In this document: positions 48,260 to 56,667 of the stretch, one piece after another
Layout of the letters: every line of letters begins with the position of its first letter
Numbering within the stretch: the first letter of the stretch is position 1
Assembly: GCA_963800295.1 (NCBI GenBank)
Contig: CAWDAJ010000004.1
Coordinates: forward strand, 60,953-124,952
Source: an uncultured Acidimicrobiaceae bacterium
GTDB taxonomy: Bacteria; Actinomycetota; Acidimicrobiia; Acidimicrobiales; Salinilacustritrichaceae
DNA: 64,000 nucleotides
Direction: 5' to 3'
Notes under the pieces: model-generated
What the model saw: only the letters and a program-made list of their open reading frames with translations
What the model was told of the DNA's origin: nothing
Databases searched by the model: none
Position numbers and translations under genes: made by a program

Positions 48260-49030
48260 TCAGCGAGCCGAGGCCAGGCGTTCCAACAGCGGGATGGCGG
48301 CGATCTTGTCCGCGGTGAGCTGGTCCCAGTGGATGCGGGGCGTCGGCCGGTCGGGCCGGCGTTCAGCTCGGCAGTCGATGACCCGTTCGGGGGTGACGAT
48401 CAGGTCGAGACGGAAGTCGTGGTCGGTCACGGGGATGTCGCCGGCGGGGACCACCTGCAGCTCGTGGACGGTGGTGACCACCACCGTGTCGGGACCGAGC
48501 AGTCCGGCTTCCCACGCCAGCGCGTACTCCAGGTCGGAGAAGCCGCCGCCCTTGCCGAGCCGGGCACCGGTCTCGTCGACGGCGACGCAGCCGGTCACGA
48601 CCAGGTCGACCGGTTCGAGCTCGTCCACCTGGACGGTGCGGGCGTTGCGAGACGCACCGGCGATCGACGACGCCTTCCGGGGGGTCTCGGACAGGTCGTC
48701 GGGGTCGAGGAGGAAGAACGGGTCGTTTTCGGCCAGGCGGGGCACCGCCATGTAGACGACCTTGCCGTCCAAGAGCGCGCGCTGGCGCACCGGCCACTGG
48801 GGCGAGTCGGGGTTGGACTTGACCGTGCTCGCTGCCTGCCACTCGTCGAGGGCGCGCAGCCGTTCGGCGGCGTCCTCGGCCCCCACGAAGTTCGGGATGC
48901 GACCGGTCGGTGCCGGGAACCGGCCGACGCCGGCGGCCACGATGCGGTCCCACGTCGCTTCGCGCAGCGCCCGCTTGGCGCCGAGCGTGGCGGCATCGCC
49001 ACCGGCGTCGTGGTCGTGACGGCGAGCCAC
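48260..49030 (-). CDS. 5-formyltetrahydrofolate cyclo-ligase family protein
   Basis: LGAKRALREATW, VAVDETGARLGKGGGFSDLEYA, VTTVHELQVV. The GTG start at 49030 lies right after the tesB stop. The Arg-rich N-terminal extension in the track ORF is rejected. Confidence 0.7.
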   Translation of the reverse strand: MARRHDHDAGGDAATLGAKRALREATWDRIVAAGVGRFPAPTGRIPNFVGAEDAAERLRALDEWQAASTVKSNPDSPQWPVRQRALLDGKVVYMAVPRLAENDPFFLLDPDDLSETPRKASSIAGASRNARTVQVDELEPVDLVVTGCVAVDETGARLGKGGGFSDLEYALAWEAGLLGPDTVVVTTVHELQVVPAGDIPVTDHDFRLDLIVTPERVIDCRAERRPDRPTPRIHWDQLTADKIAAIPLLERLASAR

Positions 49031-49032
49031 GG

Positions 49033-49848
49033 TCAGCGCCGGCCGGCGTCGCGGGCGAGGATCTCCTGGGCGACCGTGGCCACCCGGCGGCCGGCGCCGT
49101 CGAGGATGCGGCCCGACGTGAGCACCCGATCGTCGCGGTGGGTCACCGCCTCGATGTCGTAGAGCAGCCAGTCGTCGAAGCGCGGCGGGCGGTGGAACCA
49201 GATGGCGTGGTCGAGGCTGGCCCGGAACAGCGTGTTGAACAGGCCGGCGCCGCCACCGTCGACCACCCGCCGGGCGGCGCCGAACGGTCCGTGGTCGGTG
49301 GCGTAGGCGATGCCGGCGGCGTGCATGCGCGGGTCGGGCAGCTCGCAGTCGGCTCGGATCCACAGCCGCCGGTTGACGCCGAGCGGCTGGTCGTAGCTGG
49401 CGTCGCGGGTCTGCATGACTCGGGGCCGAGCGAACCCGGTGGCGGGGAGGTGCTCGGGGCCGGGGATGCCCGCCGGCGCCGGCGGCTCGTAGTCACCGCC
49501 GGGTCCGCCGACGTGGAACGACGCCGAGAGCACGAGGATGGCGCCGTCGGCCTGGCGTGCCGTGACACGGCGGAAGGTGAACGACCGACCGTCGCGGAGC
49601 CGCTCGACGATGAAGGCGATCGGCGTGGCCACGTCTCCGCCGCGGAGGAAGTAGGCGTGCAACGAGTGGACGTGGTGCTCCTCGGGCACGGTGCGGGTCG
49701 CCGCCATCAGGGCCTGTCCCACGACCTGACCGCCGAAGACCCGGGCGCGCTGCTCGGCCGGGCTGTGACCGACGAAGCGGTCAGGGTCGGTCTGATCGGC
49801 GTCGAGCGTGAGGATCTCGGCGAGGGTCGGCGACGGAGCGTCGGGCAC
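49033..49848 (-). CDS. tesB: Acyl-CoA thioesterase II
   Basis: RVFGGQVVGQALMAA, HSLHAYFLRGGD, VERLRDGRSFTFRRV, LDHAIWFH; the double hot-dog TesB pattern. Confidence 0.85.
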   Translation of the reverse strand: MPDAPSPTLAEILTLDADQTDPDRFVGHSPAEQRARVFGGQVVGQALMAATRTVPEEHHVHSLHAYFLRGGDVATPIAFIVERLRDGRSFTFRRVTARQADGAILVLSASFHVGGPGGDYEPPAPAGIPGPEHLPATGFARPRVMQTRDASYDQPLGVNRRLWIRADCELPDPRMHAAGIAYATDHGPFGAARRVVDGGGAGLFNTLFRASLDHAIWFHRPPRFDDWLLYDIEAVTHRDDRVLTSGRILDGAGRRVATVAQEILARDAGRR

Positions 49849-49884: not shown

Positions 49885-51114
49885 ATGGGGGAACCGGTCA
49901 CCGCGTCCACGCTGCGCATCCCCGAGCACGCCGACACGAAGCTGGCGTGGCGCGTCGCGGTCGGTGCTGCCATCGCGTCGGGAACGGGCTTCGGGACCGC
50001 GTACACGTTCGGTGCGTTCTTCGACGCCATGTCCGACGACTTCGGCAGCGGCCGGGGTGCCACGGCGCTGGTGTTCGGCATCACGTTGCTGCTGTTCTTC
50101 GGGCTCGGTGTCATCTCGGGTCCGCTGTCGGATCGCGCCGGGCCACGGCGGTTGGTCGTGACCGGCGCCATCCTCGTCGCGTCGGGCCTGATGCTCACGT
50201 CCCGGGTCGACAACGTCTTCGTCGGCTACCTCACCTACGGCCTCGGCGTGGGTGTCGGCGGGGGGTTGATCGTCACCCCCATGTACGCCACCGCCGGCGG
50301 CTGGTTCGTGCGCCACCGCGCCGTCGCCATGGGCCTGGTCGCCTCCGGGAACGGGTTGGGGACGCTCCTACTGGTGCCGTTCGCCGAGTCGCTCATCGAC
50401 GCCCACGGCTGGCGCACCGCCTACCTGCTGCTCGGTCTGGTGGACCTTTGCCTGTTCTCCGTGGCCGCCCTTGCGCTCGCCAAGCCTCCGATCCACGCCG
50501 CTCCTCCACCGGCGCTGGCTCACATGCGAGCGATCCTGCGCATCCCCGCCTTCCGACTCATGTTCGCCACCGGTCTGCTGTTCTCGGTGTCGTTGTTCAT
50601 CGCATTCGCGTTCATCGTCGACTTCGCCACCGACGAGGGCATCAGCTCGAGCCGTGCGGCGCTGCTGGTCGGCATCATCGGCGCGACCAGCATCGTCGGT
50701 CGCCTGGGCATCACCGCCCTGAGCAGCCGGGTCAAGGCGGTCCGCCTGCTGCAGGGGTGCCTGGCCGCGCAGCCCGTCGCGTTCGTGCTCTGGTACCTCT
50801 CCGACGGGTCCTATCCGGTGCTCGTCGCCTTCGCCCTCACCATGGGGATCGCCTACGGCGGGTTCGTGGCGCTGGGTCCCGAGGTCGCCGCCGTGCTCTT
50901 CGGTGTCGTCGGCCTGGGCGGGATCATCGGCCTGCAGTTCCTCGGTGCCGGGCTGGGTGGTCTCCTGGGGCCGACGACCGCCGGGTTCCTCGCCGACGCC
51001 AGCGACGGCCAGACCGTGCCGATCCTGTTCGCCCTGGGGGCGTCAGTGGTCACCGTGCTGCTGTCACTCGGCCTGCCCACCGAGCAGGTGATGACGGCCG
51101 CCGACCTCGACTGA
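49885..51114 (+). CDS. MFS transporter (oxalate/formate antiporter / MCT-like subfamily)
   Basis: WRVAVGAAIASGTGFGTAYTFGAFF, GPLSDRAGPRRL, and 12 TM helices. Confidence 0.8.
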   Translation: MGEPVTASTLRIPEHADTKLAWRVAVGAAIASGTGFGTAYTFGAFFDAMSDDFGSGRGATALVFGITLLLFFGLGVISGPLSDRAGPRRLVVTGAILVASGLMLTSRVDNVFVGYLTYGLGVGVGGGLIVTPMYATAGGWFVRHRAVAMGLVASGNGLGTLLLVPFAESLIDAHGWRTAYLLLGLVDLCLFSVAALALAKPPIHAAPPPALAHMRAILRIPAFRLMFATGLLFSVSLFIAFAFIVDFATDEGISSSRAALLVGIIGATSIVGRLGITALSSRVKAVRLLQGCLAAQPVAFVLWYLSDGSYPVLVAFALTMGIAYGGFVALGPEVAAVLFGVVGLGGIIGLQFLGAGLGGLLGPTTAGFLADASDGQTVPILFALGASVVTVLLSLGLPTEQVMTAADLD

Positions 51115-51119
51115 CGCTG

Positions 51120-51629
51120 CTACGACGCCGCCGCCAGATGGCGGACCGGTGTGCCCGTTCGGCTCTCCGGTGCCCCCATGAAGATGGAGAAGACCGTGCC
51201 GTCGTCGAGGTGCCGGATCGACACGGCGTCGGCGAGCTCGTGGATCAGGTGCACACCGAGGCCGGACTCGTGCTGGAGCCGCTCGGGGTCGGACGGGTCA
51301 GGCAGCTCGGGGACGGCATTCGGGTCGAAGCCCGGCCCCCAGTCGCGGACGTCGACCCGCACGCAGCGGTCGGCACCGATCTCGCAGCGGACGACGATCC
51401 GCTTGCCCACGGCATCGGCCCGGTGGACCTTGGCTGCGTTGCTGCACGCCTCGGTGACCGCCAACCGCAGGTCGTGCAAGCGACCCTGGCGCAGCGGTGG
51501 CGTGAGGGTGGCCGCCGCCGCGACCACGACCTTCACGACCGGCCGGTAGTCGTCCTCGGGACGGAAGCGGGCGACCACGTGGAGCGGCCGTTCGGTTGGT
51601 GCGGGAGCGAGGATCGCACTCGGTTCCAT
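51120..51629 (-). CDS. Anti-sigma regulatory factor-type Ser/Thr kinase (HATPase_c, RsbW/SpoIIAB-like)
   Basis: LRLAVTEACSNAAKH-like N-box (TEACSNAAKVH), the G1 box DWGPGF, and GLGVHLIHELAD. The start is placed at MEPSAIL (51629). Confidence 0.7.
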   Translation of the reverse strand: MEPSAILAPAPTERPLHVVARFRPEDDYRPVVKVVVAAAATLTPPLRQGRLHDLRLAVTEACSNAAKVHRADAVGKRIVVRCEIGADRCVRVDVRDWGPGFDPNAVPELPDPSDPERLQHESGLGVHLIHELADAVSIRHLDDGTVFSIFMGAPESRTGTPVRHLAAAS

Positions 51630-51766
51630 GGTGTCCCCCTGGGTCAAGGATCGGTGATGCTCGGTCCCTATCCCACCTTCATGACGACTAGAGCGGATTT
51701 CGTCATCTTTTCGTAACACATTGGGGACGAAGCGGACGTGCCGGCACCTCGCCGTACCCGAACGCC

Positions 51767-54589
51767 TCAGGCACGCACCCGCGCGCTGACGTAGCGGTCG
51801 TCGTCCGTGCGCTCGATGCGCCCTTCGTCGAGGGCGGTGCGCAGGGCCCGCTTGAACCGGCCCGGACCCCAGCGGCGGCCGGCGACGTGGTCGTGGAGCT
51901 CGTCGCTGGTCAGCGGTCCGGCGTCGAGGGCGTTCACGATCTGCTCGATCTCGCCGTCGATGTCCACGTCGACGGACGGGATCCGGGCAGAGGACATCAG
52001 TCCGGCCCGCATCGACCGTCGAGGGTACGGGTGGCGGTGCCGGCGTCGGAGGCCGTCCCGTCGGCTGCCGGCGCCCACGGCTCGCAGCGCCACCTGGGTC
52101 CGGTGCCCGATGACGCCATCGGGCTCCAGGCCGTGCTCGCGCTGGAACTCTTCGATCGAGGCGGCGTCCGCCGGGTCGATCGACACGGCGCCGGCGCCGT
52201 CGTTCTCGGCCAGCGGTCCGTACCGGGCTTCGCGCTCGTCGTCGTCGGTGGCCTCGCGCTCGTTGCGCACCGCCGCCATGGCCCCCTGGGTCTCGGGTCC
52301 GAGGATCCCGTCGACCTCGAGGCCGTGCTCGCGCTGGAAGCGTCGGATCGACGTGGGGTCGCTCGGGTCGACGCCCAGGTGATGGTCGGCTTCGTAGCGC
52401 AACGCCTGGGCCGTGGGCGCATCGATGTCGCCGGTCTCGTCCAGGTCGTAGCGCCGTTGGAAGGCGCGCACGGCCTCGGTGTCGACCGGGTCGAGGTAGG
52501 GCAACGCTCCCGCCGGACGACCGTCCTCGGCGGCCGAACGGTCGGATGCGATCGGCGAGCGACGCCGGTGCGCCCGCATGGCCAGCAACGCGCCGCGCGT
52601 CGCCGGCCCGACGACCCCGTCGTCCTCCAGACCCAGGGCGGCCTGGAACGCCTCGACGCTCGAGCTCGACCGAGGATCGACGTCGTCAGGAAGCTCGTCG
52701 TCGCCGGCGAGCTCGGCCTCGACGGCTCGCACGGCCGTGCGCGTGTCGTCGTCCATCACGCCGGTCACTGGAAGGCCACGCTCGTGCTGGAAGCGCCGCA
52801 CCTCGTCGGTGTCGGCCGGGTCCACGTCCGCCACACGGCGTGCGTAGCGCAGGGCACCACGAGTGACCGGTCCGATCACGGCGTCGACGGTCAGCCCGAA
52901 GCGACGCTGGAAGCGGCGGATGTCGTCCGGGTCGGTCGGATCGATCAGCTCGAGCTCGTCGTCGTCCAGGTCGTCGGCGGCCGCCCGCTCGGCCTTCAGG
53001 GCGCCCCGGGTCTGGTCGCCGATGGCGCCGTCGACCGTGAGTCCCTGGTCCTCCTGGAAGGAGCGGACATCGTCGGCGTCGGCAGGGTCGATGCCGAGGG
53101 GACCTGTCCGCCGGGCCGAGCTGGCGTCGGCGTCTCCGCTGTCGCCTGCGTCGGCGGCCGACAGAGGCTTGGCGATGTCCTCGAGGCTGCGCTGCTCGGC
53201 CTTGACGCCCCAGAGCAGCTCGGCGACACCACCGAGCATCATCAGCCCGGCACCGATGAGGTAGCCGATGTACACCGACCCGCGGCTGTTGCCCTCGCCG
53301 ATCAGCGTGCCGAAGAGCCACGGGCCGACGATGCCGCCGGCGCCGGTGGCGATGGCGTAGAAGAACGCGATCGCCATGGCCCGGATCTCCAGCGGGAAGG
53401 TCTCGCTCACGGTGAGGTAGCCCGCGCTGGCACCCGCCGAGGCGAAGAAGAAGATCACGACCCAACCGGCGGTGAGGGTCATCGTGCTGAGGACGTCCTG
53501 GGTGAACAGGTAGCCGATGCCGGCGGTGAGGATGCCCGCGGTGAAGTAGCACCCCGAGATCAATGGCTTGCGGCCGACGGTGTCGAAGAAGCGGCCGAGC
53601 AGGATGGGGCCGAGCAGGTTCCCGATGGCGAAGGGGATGATGTACAGCCCGACGCTCTTGGTACTGACGCCGTAGAAGGTGGTGAGGATGAGTCCGTACG
53701 TGAAGAAGATGGCGTTGTACAGGAACGCCTGCGTCGCCATGAGGGAGAAGCTCACCACAGACCGCTTGGGGTAGAGGCGGAACATCGTGCGGCCGAGCTC
53801 GAGGAAGCCGAGCGATCGCCGTTCGCGGAGCTCGATCGCTTCGTCGTCGGGCGGCTCCTCCAGGGTGAGGTCGTCACCTTCGTCCTGCCGGACGGCGTCC
53901 TCGATCTCCTGCACCACCGCTTCGGCCTCCTCCTCGCGGCCGTGGGTCATCAGCCAGCGGGGGCTCTCGGGCACCGAGCGCCGGAGCAGCAGGATGCCGA
54001 CGGCCAACACGCCGCCGGTGGCGAAGGCCGCTCGCCACCCGTAGGCGTCGGGCAACAGGTTCAAGAAGACGAGTGACAGGCCGCCGGCGATGGCGGCGCC
54101 GCCCCAGTAGCTGCCGTTGATGGCGAGATCGGCCCAGCCGCGCGCTCGGGCGGGGATCAGTTCGTCGATGGCCGAGTTGATGGCGGCGTACTCCCCGCCG
54201 ATGCCGAAGCCGGTGACGAACCGGAAGATGGCGAAGCTCCAGAACCCCCACGCCAGAGTCGTCATGATCACGCCGAGCATGTACACGCCGAGAGTGGCGA
54301 GGAAGAGCTTCTTCCGACCCATCCGGTCGGTGAGGTAGCCCCAGAACAGGGCACCGGAGATGGCGCCGAACACGTAGATGGATGCCACCAGGCCGACCTG
54401 GCCACTGGTCATCCCGAGGCTGTCGCGCAGGGAGGGCCCAACCGCGCCCTTCATCGTCACCTCGAGCCCGTCGAGGATCCACACCGTGCCGAGCGAAGCC
54501 ACCACGTACCAGTGCCACTTCGACCACGGGAGTCGGTCCAGACGCGCCGGGATCTTCGTGCTGATGACCTTCCTCGTCACGGACGCCAC
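51767..54589 (-). CDS. MFS (sugar-porter-like) transporter fused to a ~470-aa C-terminal tail carrying 7 peptidoglycan-binding-domain-like repeats and a terminal winged-helix-like module
   Basis: N-terminal 12-TM MFS domain (GYLTDRMGRKK, GFGIGGEYAA, PESPRWL). The tail then has seven copies of D(P)xDxxx[VI]RxFQxxxGLxxDGxxGxxTxxAL (for example VRSFQEDQGLTVDGAIGDQTRGAL and IRRFQREHGLEVDGILGPETQGAM). The protein ends with LTSDELHDHVAGRRWGPGRFKRALRTALDEGRIERTDDDRYV. Confidence 0.85.
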   Translation of the reverse strand: MASVTRKVISTKIPARLDRLPWSKWHWYVVASLGTVWILDGLEVTMKGAVGPSLRDSLGMTSGQVGLVASIYVFGAISGALFWGYLTDRMGRKKLFLATLGVYMLGVIMTTLAWGFWSFAIFRFVTGFGIGGEYAAINSAIDELIPARARGWADLAINGSYWGGAAIAGGLSLVFLNLLPDAYGWRAAFATGGVLAVGILLLRRSVPESPRWLMTHGREEEAEAVVQEIEDAVRQDEGDDLTLEEPPDDEAIELRERRSLGFLELGRTMFRLYPKRSVVSFSLMATQAFLYNAIFFTYGLILTTFYGVSTKSVGLYIIPFAIGNLLGPILLGRFFDTVGRKPLISGCYFTAGILTAGIGYLFTQDVLSTMTLTAGWVVIFFFASAGASAGYLTVSETFPLEIRAMAIAFFYAIATGAGGIVGPWLFGTLIGEGNSRGSVYIGYLIGAGLMMLGGVAELLWGVKAEQRSLEDIAKPLSAADAGDSGDADASSARRTGPLGIDPADADDVRSFQEDQGLTVDGAIGDQTRGALKAERAAADDLDDDELELIDPTDPDDIRRFQRRFGLTVDAVIGPVTRGALRYARRVADVDPADTDEVRRFQHERGLPVTGVMDDDTRTAVRAVEAELAGDDELPDDVDPRSSSSVEAFQAALGLEDDGVVGPATRGALLAMRAHRRRSPIASDRSAAEDGRPAGALPYLDPVDTEAVRAFQRRYDLDETGDIDAPTAQALRYEADHHLGVDPSDPTSIRRFQREHGLEVDGILGPETQGAMAAVRNEREATDDDEREARYGPLAENDGAGAVSIDPADAASIEEFQREHGLEPDGVIGHRTQVALRAVGAGSRRDGLRRRHRHPYPRRSMRAGLMSSARIPSVDVDIDGEIEQIVNALDAGPLTSDELHDHVAGRRWGPGRFKRALRTALDEGRIERTDDDRYVSARVRA

Positions 54590-54775: not shown

Positions 54776-54849
54776 GCGCCCGTAGCTCAATTGGATAGAG
54801 CATCTGACTACGGATCAGAAGGTTGGGGGTTCGAGTCCCTCCGGGCGCG
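54776..54849 (+). tRNA. tRNA-Arg (anticodon ACG)
   Basis: Cloverleaf readable by eye: acceptor GCGCCCG/CGGGCGC, D arm GCTC-AATTGGATA-GAGC, anticodon arm TCTGA-CTACGGA-TCAGA, T arm GGGGG-TTCGAGT-CCCTC. Confidence 0.9.
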
Positions 54850-54962
54850 CGGAAAGCAGCAGGTCAGAGCACCTGCCGTTTGCGTTGAGGGGTCACTGAG
54901 ACCCTCTTGGCAATCCGTTGGCAATCTGCCGGCGGCGTCGAGCCGAGAGGAGTCGATGAGAC

Positions 54963-56156
54963 ATGCAGGGTCATCTGCAACGACGGGGCGACGATTCGTG
55001 GCGGTGCAAGGTCTTCCTGGGCCGCTCCGCCGACGGCAAGCGCCGGTACCTCGAGCGCACCGTCCGGGGGTCGCGCAAGGAGGCCGAGCACGAGCTGGCC
55101 GTGATGGTGGTCGAGGCCGGCGAGGGTCGGTGGGTTCCGACGGCGCCGATGACGATGGCCGAGCTGCTCGAGCGCTGGCTGACGCTGAAGGCGACGACCG
55201 TGGAGCCGACCACGGTCAACGGCTACCGGTGGATCGCGAAGCAGTACGTGCTGCCGGCGTTCGGCGACCGGAAGGTGGCGACGATCCGGACCCTGGAGCT
55301 GGACGACTTCTACGCCCAGCTCCGCTCTCACGGCCGCACGGTCGGCGCCCACGCCGGCTCTCAGGACGATGAGAGCGCGCTCTCCGGCCGCACGGTCCGG
55401 ATCTGCCACACCGTGTTGCGCCAGTCGCTCGAGCAGGCCCGCAAGTGGGGCGTGATCTCCCGCAACCCGGCCCGGGACGCCACTCCCCCATCCGTCGGCC
55501 ACCACGAGATCTCGCCGCCGTCGGTGACCCAGGTCCGGGCCCTGGTCGAGCGGGCCCTCGACGACGAGTTCCCCGACTTCGGCGTCTACCTGTGGCTGCT
55601 CGCCGTCACCGGCTGCCGGCGGGGCGAGGGCTGCGCGCTGCGGTGGCGTGACGTCTCGTGGGGCACCAGCGATCTGTTGATCCGTCGGTCGATCGCCCAC
55701 GTCGGCTCGGAGATCGTCGAGAAGGGGACGAAGACCCACCAGGCCCGTCGGGTCGCGCTCGACGCCGGCACGCTCGATCTGCTCCGCCAGCACCAGCTGC
55801 GGTGCCAGGAGCTGGCGTTGCGGGTCGGCGTCCGGCTCGACGACGAGGCGTTCCTGTTCAGCGAGGATCCCGATTTCGCCACGCCGTGGCGTCCCGACGT
55901 CTGCACCAACCGCTTCGGCCGGCTCCGAGGCACGCTCGGGTTCGATTCGGTCCGGCTCCACGATTTGCGCCACTTCACAGCGACAGAGCTCGGCCAGTCC
56001 GGCACGCCGGTGGCGACGATCAGCGCCCGCCTCGGCCACCGCGACAAGGCCACCACCCTGAACATCTACAGCCACACCCTGCCGGCCAGCGACGCCCAGG
56101 CCGCCGAGACGATGAGTCGACTGCTCGGCACGCCCGCTCTCGAGCACCGTGCGTAG
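54963..56156 (+). CDS. Tyrosine-type site-specific recombinase (phage integrase family)
   Basis: An N-terminal SAM-like/arm-binding region. The catalytic residues have recognisable contexts: TGCRRGEGCALRW (Arg), LHDLRHF (His-x-x-Arg), RLGHRDKATTLNIYSH (His ... Tyr). Confidence 0.9.
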   Translation: MQGHLQRRGDDSWRCKVFLGRSADGKRRYLERTVRGSRKEAEHELAVMVVEAGEGRWVPTAPMTMAELLERWLTLKATTVEPTTVNGYRWIAKQYVLPAFGDRKVATIRTLELDDFYAQLRSHGRTVGAHAGSQDDESALSGRTVRICHTVLRQSLEQARKWGVISRNPARDATPPSVGHHEISPPSVTQVRALVERALDDEFPDFGVYLWLLAVTGCRRGEGCALRWRDVSWGTSDLLIRRSIAHVGSEIVEKGTKTHQARRVALDAGTLDLLRQHQLRCQELALRVGVRLDDEAFLFSEDPDFATPWRPDVCTNRFGRLRGTLGFDSVRLHDLRHFTATELGQSGTPVATISARLGHRDKATTLNIYSHTLPASDAQAAETMSRLLGTPALEHRA

Positions 56157-56253: not shown

Positions 56254-56358
56254 GGCGCCTCACCCCGCTTCCGCCGCACCACGCTCAGGGGCCGGATCGG
56301 ACGAGGGCGGATTTGAGACGAATCGCCCCCGATGAGGGCGATGTGAGATGTGAACACC

Positions 56359-56667
56359 ATGCGACCCCTCACCCTCACCGTCGAAGAAGCCGGCCGACTC
56401 CTCGGCGTCAGCCGCTCCACCGCCTACGAGCTCGTCCGCACCGGCGAACTCGAGTCGATCCGGCTGCGCCGTCGAGTCGTCGTACCGGTGGCGGGCCTCG
56501 CGCAGCGGCTGCACCTCACCGTCCCGGACGTGTGGCTCGCCCTCGGCCGGCACGGCGACGATGCGGACCGGAGGTCAACATCGACGATCGAGTCCAGCGC
56601 GACCGTCGGAGAGGACCGAGGAAATCGACCCACCGGCGACCATAACCCAGTGCTGCTATCACCTTGA
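56359..56667 (+). CDS. Excisionase-family helix-turn-helix DNA-binding protein
   Basis: MRPLTLTVEEAGRLLGVSRSTAYELVRTGELESIRLRRRVVVP is the typical MerR-like excisionase HTH. It lies directly after int. Confidence 0.75.
   Translation: MRPLTLTVEEAGRLLGVSRSTAYELVRTGELESIRLRRRVVVPVAGLAQRLHLTVPDVWLALGRHGDDADRRSTSTIESSATVGEDRGNRPTGDHNPVLLSP

Follow-up and report, generated by a model that had tools for sequence, protein, structure and literature searches.

A predicted cytoplasmic array of seven half PG_binding_1 units on a winged-helix-bearing MFS transporter and on other membrane scaffolds of Actinomycetota

PG_binding_1 domains (PF01471) are treated as surface-display, extracytoplasmic modules, and a match to the family is taken as a marker of wall-associated proteins outside the membrane and used in surface-proteome prediction. 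Several transporters carry appended regulatory domains in the cytoplasm, among them the CBS domains of OpuA and MgtE, the STAS domains of SulP/SLC26 proteins, the RCK domains of K+ channels and the coiled coil of ProP. On the muropeptide permease AmpG, a member of the major facilitator superfamily (MFS), we know of no comparable tail. Here we analyse a gene in a 64,000-nucleotide (nt) stretch of DNA from an uncultured Acidimicrobiaceae bacterium (contig CAWDAJ010000004.1 of assembly GCA_963800295.1, positions 60,953 to 124,952; hereafter the window). The gene encodes an MFS transporter whose C-terminal tail holds seven PG_binding_1-like units and ends in a winged helix. An earlier note, made from the letters of the DNA, had considered this architecture undescribed, and our literature searches likewise found no description of it; Pfam has no dedicated family for either the array or the end-piece. 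We describe the array as a set of half-domains, predicted to lie in the cytoplasm and carried by several unrelated membrane scaffolds, and lean towards reading it as an intracellular accessory platform on transporters.

The gene occupies the reverse strand and is built as follows (window coordinates; aa, amino acids; TM, transmembrane; PGBD, peptidoglycan-binding domain; pLDDT, predicted local distance difference test; pI, isoelectric point).

51767..54589, minus strand: whole coding sequence, 940 aa, GTG start, stop codon at 51767-51769; MFS, acidic linker, seven-unit half-PGBD array, basic motif and winged helix
53195..54589, minus strand: MFS transporter domain, aa 1-465, with Sugar_tr and MFS_1 matches and 12 TM segments
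aa 28-46, 65-83, 95-113, 119-137, 161-179, 184-202, 278-296, 313-331, 343-361, 366-384, 404-422 and 444-462: the TM segments
aa 84-94, between TM2 and TM3: MFS motif A, GYLTDRMGRKK, read from the translation
aa 203-277: central cytoplasmic loop of the MFS domain, 75 aa, as is usual for MFS
53090..53194, minus strand: acidic linker after TM12, aa 466-500, acidic by composition and of low model confidence (pLDDT <50 over most of it, ~aa 465-493)
52055..53089, minus strand: seven-unit array, aa 501-845, PG_binding_1 in 7 stretches, predicted rigid all-alpha body
52997..53068, minus strand: repeat 1 core, aa 508-531, VRSFQEDQGLTVDGAIGDQTRGAL
52850..52921, minus strand: repeat 2 core, aa 557-580, IRRFQRRFGLTVDAVIGPVTRGAL
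52730..52801, minus strand: repeat 3 core, aa 597-620, VRRFQHERGLPVTGVMDDDTRTAV
52586..52657, minus strand: repeat 4 core, aa 645-668, VEAFQAALGLEDDGVVGPATRGAL
52400..52471, minus strand: repeat 5 core, aa 707-730, VRAFQRRYDLDETGDIDAPTAQAL
52277..52348, minus strand: repeat 6 core, aa 748-771, IRRFQREHGLEVDGILGPETQGAM
52085..52156, minus strand: repeat 7 core, aa 812-835, IEEFQREHGLEPDGVIGHRTQVAL
51965..52054, minus strand: basic segment, aa 846-875, mostly predicted disordered, 8 Arg, pI 12
51770..51964, minus strand: terminal winged-helix module, aa 876-940, in which a near-invariant W-G-P-G-R starts helix 3

Residue 1 of this 940-aa open reading frame (ORF) aligns with the N-termini of its orthologues. 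The transporter part is the standard 12-TM, sugar-porter-type MFS that the earlier note had recognized: Pfam places Sugar_tr (PF00083) at aa 61-457 (E 6e-46, 157.7 bits against a cut-off of 22.3) and MFS_1 at E 1e-33 (117 bits against 33.4), and the 6+6 arrangement of TM segments around a long central loop, together with motif A, likewise assigns the domain to the Sugar_tr-type MFS. A hydropathy scan recovered the twelve segments and nothing hydrophobic beyond aa 462, where the Kyte-Doolittle maximum of the tail is 0.69, so the tail does lack an additional TM helix as the note had said. Its seven repeats, expected at ~52090-53080, are exactly the seven matches of the regular expression [VI]xxFQxxxGLxxDGxxGxxTxxAL, at nt 52085-53068.

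The repeats are PG_binding_1-like in sequence (PF01471, E 2e-46, 156 bits against a cut-off of 23, in 7 stretches), but they are only the second halves of that domain. Alignments to the profile, in the window protein and in relatives where reported, span positions ~27/34-57 of 57; every 24-aa unit core is the same second-half motif; and the PDB sequences matched by a profile of the tail, which are PG-binding domains of L,D-transpeptidases and of an endolysin, mostly align over ~30-40 residues, with a maximum of ~60. This partial coverage suggests that each unit corresponds to the helix-loop-helix with which the canonical three-helix domain ends. In none of the seven did comparison with Pfam or the PDB find a complete three-helix domain of ~57 residues, and since the first helix is missing throughout, the canonical bundle would not form. 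The units average 58% nt and 48% aa identity to each other. At only 58% nt identity the repeats must be old, the product of neither recent duplication nor faulty assembly.

Structure prediction with AlphaFold2 (AF2) gave the tail (aa 465-940, 43-sequence alignment) a mean pLDDT of 84 and a predicted template-modelling score (pTM) of 0.71, and the array alone (aa 495-855) a mean pLDDT of 89.9 and a pTM of 0.85. With this confidence, the seven units are predicted to form a single rigid all-alpha body, as opposed to beads on a string, and a strongly acidic one (net charge -37, pI 4.4). A Foldseek comparison with the PDB found no global counterpart of the array (template-modelling score <= 0.18, probability <= 0.08). 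Locally, the units superpose on the true PGBDs 4g54 and 5tv7 at 0.5-1.2 A over 27-29 aa, with structural matches spanning 27-50 aa; the match to 4g54 reaches 0.5 A over 27 residues at 37% identity, and SleB and the proMMP prodomains also match locally. Across the 44 sequences aligned, all units show almost no variation at the Gln, Thr and Asp-cap positions.

The array is also a portable module. Profile searches with the tail or with the array only retrieved ~40 further array proteins on other membrane scaffolds, which, where the source is named, come from Solirubrobacteraceae or from metagenome-assembled genomes (MAGs) of unclassified Actinomycetota. In one type the array forms the C-terminus of 7-TM proteins (P0003, P0006, P0021), whose match to the iron/lead-permease-like family OFeT_1 (PF16955) is marginal, at 26-28.5 bits against a cut-off of 26.9, with only P0006 (26.1) under it. 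In another it sits in the central loop of 3+3-TM proteins (P0002, P0026, P0038). The units are positionally orthologous across scaffolds and keep their order; two features around them are conserved as well, the junction RYE.DHHLGVDP that joins units 5 and 6 and the RYG that precedes unit 7. Against the array-only profile, members score 360-534 bits and ordinary multi-PGBD wall proteins <110 bits. This sharp gap and the constant order of units mark a discrete family, not a variable tandem repeat. One further protein, P0032 (675 aa, from a 4.7-kb metagenome contig), consists of a methylpurine-DNA glycosylase domain (PF02245, E 1e-50), then the array, then 3 TM helices. Downstream of array genes of the OFeT_1-like and 3+3-TM types lie a conserved gene for a 75-aa, 2-TM peptide and a DJ-1/PfpI gene (L083 7900-8703; L087 8007-8838), or, in L085 (7790-7987), a DJ-1/PfpI-like fragment. 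The idea that the small gene after the OFeT-array genes is a detached winged-helix module was rejected; it encodes the 2-TM peptide or the DJ-1/PfpI-like fragment.

All three scaffolds place the array on the same side of the membrane. Under the positive-inside rule, the MFS domain of the window protein has 26 Lys and Arg residues on the side of its N- and C-termini and 4 on the opposite side, which agrees with the N-in/C-in arrangement of MFS transporters and, as far as such rules go, upholds the cytoplasmic C-terminus given in the earlier note. The OFeT_1-like 7-TM proteins carry 0-1 such residues on the N-terminal side and 10-11 on the array side. In the 3+3-TM proteins the array takes the place of the central loop and is flanked by Lys/Arg-rich residues; by TM parity, this loop and the tail after TM7 share one membrane side. 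The array is therefore predicted to be cytoplasmic, with three independent scaffolds in agreement. Its surroundings are in keeping: at the array position, sister MFS proteins with the winged helix hold a highly charged helical region of ~300 aa, a winged helix follows the array in the window protein, and in P0032 a domain of cytoplasmic DNA repair precedes it. We weighed the possibility that an unusual topology or post-translational export puts the tail outside, where it would bind the wall like ordinary PG_binding_1 domains, which otherwise lie beyond the membrane. Such a tail would have to overcome an even number of TM segments with strong positive-inside bias, a length of 478 aa with no hydrophobic segment, the concordance of three differing scaffolds, the charged helical region or winged helix of the sister proteins and the glycosylase fusion, and we consider it highly improbable. 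An extracytoplasmic site near peptidoglycan, as expected of PG_binding_1 domains, is thus not what topology rules indicate on any of the three scaffolds.

To place the fusion among its relatives, we scanned one genome per species for the transporter, which yielded 529 relatives, of which 80 were kept. Most (64/80) lack any tail; these ~480-aa proteins come from Actinomycetota, Chloroflexota, Dormibacterota, Verrucomicrobiota and one haloarchaeon. The closest matches of the window protein, at 70-83% identity, belong to Acidimicrobiaceae MAGs. The same architecture, which the earlier note had proposed to look for in other genomes, is intact, with 7-8 repeats and the same end-piece, in at least four independent MAGs and in one database protein.

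L003, Acidimicrobiaceae, 940 aa
L004, 984 aa
L006, Thermoleophilia, 995 aa
L011, Iamiaceae, 984 aa
P0097, a database protein, 946 aa

Could the gene be an assembly chimera, or a gene-calling artefact that fuses two ORFs? Several orthologues in MAG assemblies are indeed split by frameshifts (L001/L009, L002, L005, L007, L010). Contig names suggest that these assemblies derive from long-read data, and split L002 and intact L004 are one species, which indicates assembly error and not pseudogenes. Within the continuous 984-aa ORF of L011, the TM12 region contains an Arg/Pro-rich, out-of-frame-looking stretch that suggests compensating indel errors in that MAG. With five full-length copies in differing lineages, G+C content at third codon positions even along the gene (0.94 / 0.89 / 0.94) and the end-piece conserved in the same frame 3' of the array, a chimera is effectively refuted and retains almost no probability. 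The gene for the MFS, array and winged helix is real and conserved, and neither of two outcomes that would have spoken against the earlier note, a poor PG_binding_1 match or a fusion confined to one assembly, was seen.

The end-piece defines a clade of transporters in which the array comes and goes. A word-indexed homology search with the 92-aa end-piece returned no matches; the family was then collected by an exhaustive profile search of 1.84 billion proteins, which gave 536 cluster representatives (137 at E <= 1e-10). Almost all lie either at the C-terminus of this MFS clade or on short fragments. Between TM12 and the end-piece we found three alternative linkers: a short acidic one with no repeats (L008, L012, Streptomyces sp. 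JJ36 (L014) and Pseudonocardia asaccharolytica DSM 44247 (L017)), an Ala/Glu/Arg-rich helical one of 250-350 aa (P0143, P0148, P0152, P0218, and similarly P0144, P0222, P0237) and the seven-unit array. The Ala/Glu/Arg-rich linkers look like coiled coils or single alpha-helices, and these proteins read FRPGPG..FYSPGM before the winged-helix module. In a tree of the MFS domain, end-piece-bearing proteins form one clade, separate from the tail-less ones, within which array and short-linker forms are interleaved. Short-linker L008 is sister to array-bearing L003, with 85% identity in the MFS domain, and short-linker L012 to array-bearing P0097. A decayed remnant of the last repeat persists in the linker of L008 and points to clean deletion of the array. 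From this deletion and the interleaving, the array appears to be an accessory insertion in a tolerant linker. These comparisons show the winged-helix end-piece as the constant of the clade and the array as variable, labile and dispensable in close relatives, at odds with an essential role for the sensing tail of the earlier note. A role for the linker as a fixed-length spacer is unlikely, its length ranging from ~60 to 350 aa within the clade.

On balance, and by a modest measure, we favour the view that the array is an intracellular accessory regulatory or interaction platform on transporters. The clade is an uncharacterised branch of MFS transporters with SV2, SLC22 and the sugar porters as relatives, and its defining extra is the C-terminal end-piece, predicted to be cytoplasmic. 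The linker before it tolerates insertions of any of the three kinds, and the seven-unit cassette is also grafted into the predicted cytoplasmic tail or central loop of two other permease scaffolds. In this proposal the array would recognise a small ligand or a partner in the cytoplasm, and this binding would modulate the transporter, the availability of the basic-motif/winged-helix end-piece, or both; it would never contact the cell wall, and the core transporter could do without it. Several points weigh against this proposal. The cytoplasmic side is inferred from topology rules; the AF2 confidence may be too high, since the 44 sequences aligned for it consist of mutually similar repeats; and none of the conserved gene neighbours indicates a partner or ligand. 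The canonical FQ..GL..DG..G..T signature in every unit fits a structural core and, equally, retained binding of a PG-like ligand. The range of linker lengths, moreover, disfavours a fixed-distance spacer yet leaves the actual role of the linker unspecified.

The retained signature is also the starting point of a different explanation, in which the array is an intracellular sensor of peptidoglycan (PG) precursors or muropeptides that keeps the ligand specificity of PG_binding_1 and couples the activity or localisation of the transporter to wall synthesis. Candidate ligands at the cytoplasmic face would be UDP-MurNAc-pentapeptide, the head groups of lipid I/II and recycled anhydro-muropeptides. 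All seven units retain the signature, with its near-invariant Gln, Thr and Asp cap, and they superpose closely on true PGBDs; the array is in every case anchored at the membrane, the site of lipid-linked precursors, and multivalent binding would suit seven units. The conserved residues, however, form the structural core of a fold that also has non-PG roles, for example in proMMP prodomains, and every unit is missing the canonical first helix. Cell-wall genes are not conserved near the loci examined, a close relative has lost the array by deletion, and a surface with a net charge of -37 is odd for anionic nucleotide-sugar or pyrophosphate ligands. We regard such a sensor as possible but unlikely. 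Its boldest form, that the array evolved from the extracellular PG_binding_1 fold into a new intracellular receptor for wall building blocks (lipid II, UDP-MurNAc-pentapeptide or recycled muropeptides), grafted on several Actinomycetota transporter families and gating or positioning transport by the state of wall synthesis, we hold to be rather doubtful.

The end of the protein had been described in the earlier note as a basic, winged helix-turn-helix-like module. The winged-helix fold holds up, but the module itself, the terminal 65 aa, is slightly acidic (pI 5.2) and the basic part is the 30 aa before it. In that basic segment the motif H-P-Y-x-R-R-x-M-x-x-G-L-x-S is kept in L003, L004, L008, L011, L012, L014, L017 and the P-numbered hits, and in other clade members the motif preceding the winged helix reads F-R-P-G-P-G..F-Y-S-P-G-M. 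AF2 gives aa 856-872 a pLDDT <50, as for a disordered stretch, and models aa 875-939 as H-b-H-H-b-b (in tail numbering H411-424, a bridge, H431-437, H440-457, E461-464 and E468-471). In this model, the terminal 65 aa adopt the winged-helix order H1-b1-H2-H3-b2-b3, and Foldseek aligns them, at E ~1, with template-modelling scores on the target of 0.7-0.81 to the cullin WHB, ZBP1 Z-alpha, Rpa2 and methyltransferase winged helices. A profile search of the PDB with the winged-helix family gave no match.

Sequence ties the module loosely to the AlkZ-like/HTH_42 family (PF06224), which 24/61 end-piece members match at E <= 0.01 (best E 9.4e-7) over one winged-helix unit, profile positions ~76-144. 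Among the member scores seen, only P0096 (29.2) exceeds the cut-off of 25.9 and P0092 (25.7) falls just under it; the window copy has no PF06224 match in Pfam, and hhalign of the family with one AlkZ-like protein is weak (E 0.07). We therefore treat the module as a probable distant homologue of the AlkZ/YcaQ winged-helix fold and not as a family member. AlkZ/YcaQ proteins consist of tandem winged-helix motifs (PMC9040887, PMC7367128). The end module resembles one of their units; unlike these DNA glycosylases, it is a single unit of ~65 aa and has neither tandem winged helices nor a catalytic region. Loose links to DNA glycosylases recur, in the methylpurine-DNA glycosylase fusion of P0032, the AlkZ-like flavour of the winged helix and an AlkZ-like gene beside the array gene in L083; all three may be coincidence.

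Such a module could bind DNA or RNA, making the protein a transporter-linked one-component regulator or a membrane-nucleoid tether for which the linker, of any class, is a mere leash. The winged-helix fold itself, the AlkZ-like matches, an Arg-rich helix 3 (GPGRFKRALR) and the very basic segment before the module would all suit this. The winged helix is nevertheless net acidic, its best Foldseek matches include protein-interaction winged helices (cullin WHB, the Rpa2 winged helix), and the window copy lacks the Pfam match. Nucleic-acid binding would also leave unexplained why the same array occurs on permeases that have no winged helix. It seems to us fairly unlikely.

What the transporter itself is related to bears on one more explanation. 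The closest solved relatives of the MFS domain are SV2A (E 1.5e-18, N-terminal half), SLC22 (SLC22A3, 2e-10) and XylE/GlcP, and the best NCBIfam models are aromatic-acid, sugar-porter, organic-cation, MhpT and similar families, all far under their cut-offs. AmpG was not found among the best 25 NCBIfam models or the closest PDB relatives. By sequence, then, the transporter is related to SV2, SLC22 and the sugar porters, not to AmpG. Its neighbours in the window are these.

48260-49363, minus strand: 5-formyltetrahydrofolate cyclo-ligase
49033-49848, minus strand: acyl-CoA thioesterase
49900-51114, plus strand: second MFS_1 transporter, convergent with the kinase gene
51120-51719, minus strand: RsbW-like HATPase_c_2 anti-sigma-type kinase, 199 aa, 47 nt downstream of the MFS gene
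54776-54850, plus strand: tRNA-Arg(ACG), 187 nt upstream of the MFS gene start
54859-54876: terminator-like hairpin after the tRNA-Arg
54963-56156, plus strand: tyrosine integrase
56350-56667, plus strand: HTH_17 excisionase-like gene

The earlier note had proposed an importer of muropeptides or wall fragments, analogous to AmpG, whose tail captures what is imported and relays a signal, possibly to the adjacent anti-sigma-type kinase. PG_binding_1-like repeats on the cytoplasmic side of a transporter would fit this, as would the kinase gene, which does follow directly in the same orientation, across a gap without a terminator-like site. Against it stand the nearest relatives of the transporter (SV2A, SLC22/OCT, XylE/GlcP and the aromatic-acid, sugar-porter and organic-cation families), the ~500 tail-less homologues across many phyla and even an archaeon, the unrelated permeases that bear the same array, and the sister gene that has lost it. 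Nor does the kinase travel with the transporter: tblastn (E < 1e-6) found no homologue of it within 8 kb in any of 82 related loci (the 80 scanned plus L001 and L002), which leaves the proposed relay unsupported. An AmpG-like importer is in our view very unlikely. No STAS partner was seen near the kinase gene.

The wider neighbourhood is similarly private to the window. Across the 82 loci, its neighbouring genes (kinase, thioesterase, 5-formyltetrahydrofolate cyclo-ligase, second MFS, TetR, integrase) returned only a partial integrase match, in L003. All-against-all clustering of flanking ORFs identified a single gene that recurs beside the MFS form: a CDF cation-efflux gene, present in 3 genomes and absent from the window. 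This gene lies directly upstream of the MFS-array gene in L001/L009 (4854-5825) and L002 (6859-7827), and also in L004 and L007. CorA and Na/Ca-exchanger genes also occur near the L002 locus, and an iron/lead-permease-like family is another scaffold of the array; these links amount to a faint metal-ion theme. On the other side of the gene, the tRNA-Arg, the integrase and the excisionase-like gene look like the left end of an integrated element extending rightwards, and no second att copy of the tRNA-Arg 3' end was found within the window. In four loci a tRNA gene precedes the MFS gene by ~0.2-1.3 kb, and the tRNA is a different one in each: Val in L006 (7518-7591), Ala in L011 (7656-7751), Lys in L012 (6649-6722) and Arg in the window (54776-54850).

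What is new here, and unusual, is an accessory domain of secondary transporters apparently remodelled from a fold otherwise seen as characteristic of proteins that bind the wall outside the membrane. Soil Actinomycetota would employ a derivative of it inside the cell and have passed it, as one cassette, among three or more transporter scaffolds, and a PF01471 match alone is consequently an unsafe basis for inferring location or function. The analysis also defines two unannotated domain families, the seven-unit array and the WGPGR winged-helix end-piece with its 536 cluster representatives, and brings to light an entire clade of MFS transporters that carry a tethered winged helix. If the array does bind a cytoplasmic ligand, it would represent a new class of transporter-regulatory domain; were it a receptor for wall building blocks, bacteria would have their own equivalent, in logic, of cytosolic muropeptide receptors.

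Set beside described systems, the window protein shares something with each. Canonical PG_binding_1 domains (4lpq, YcbB 7aj9/6ntw, SleB 6tci, EpsAB 4g54, phiKZ gp144 and the proMMP prodomains) have the signature xxVxxFQxxxGLxxDGxxGxxTxxAL and the local helix-loop-helix geometry in common with the array units. The latter differ in being half-domains, seven of which are predicted to pack as one 345-aa body, and the array is predicted to be cytoplasmic and has no wall-acting catalytic partner domain. AmpG resembles the window protein as a secondary transporter of the MFS, and specific sequence similarity between them was not found in NCBIfam or the PDB. SV2A/SV2B and SLC22 (OCT/OAT) are the nearest solved sequence relatives of the transporter domain, at an identity too low for substrate transfer in the case of SV2A and SLC22; they are eukaryotic, have another layout of loops and luminal domain and carry neither a PGBD-like array nor a winged helix. 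The iron/lead-permease-like (OFeT_1) and 3+3-TM array proteins carry the same seven units, unchanged in order; their arrays are 33-45% identical to that of the window protein and lie on the predicted cytoplasmic side, but the membrane scaffold differs and the winged-helix end-piece is absent. ProP and the CBS, STAS and RCK systems are likewise transporters with a cytoplasmic accessory domain that the permease fold does not need and that occurs in several families. In the window protein the accessory is an undescribed half-PGBD array with a winged helix, and the likeness is one of logic.

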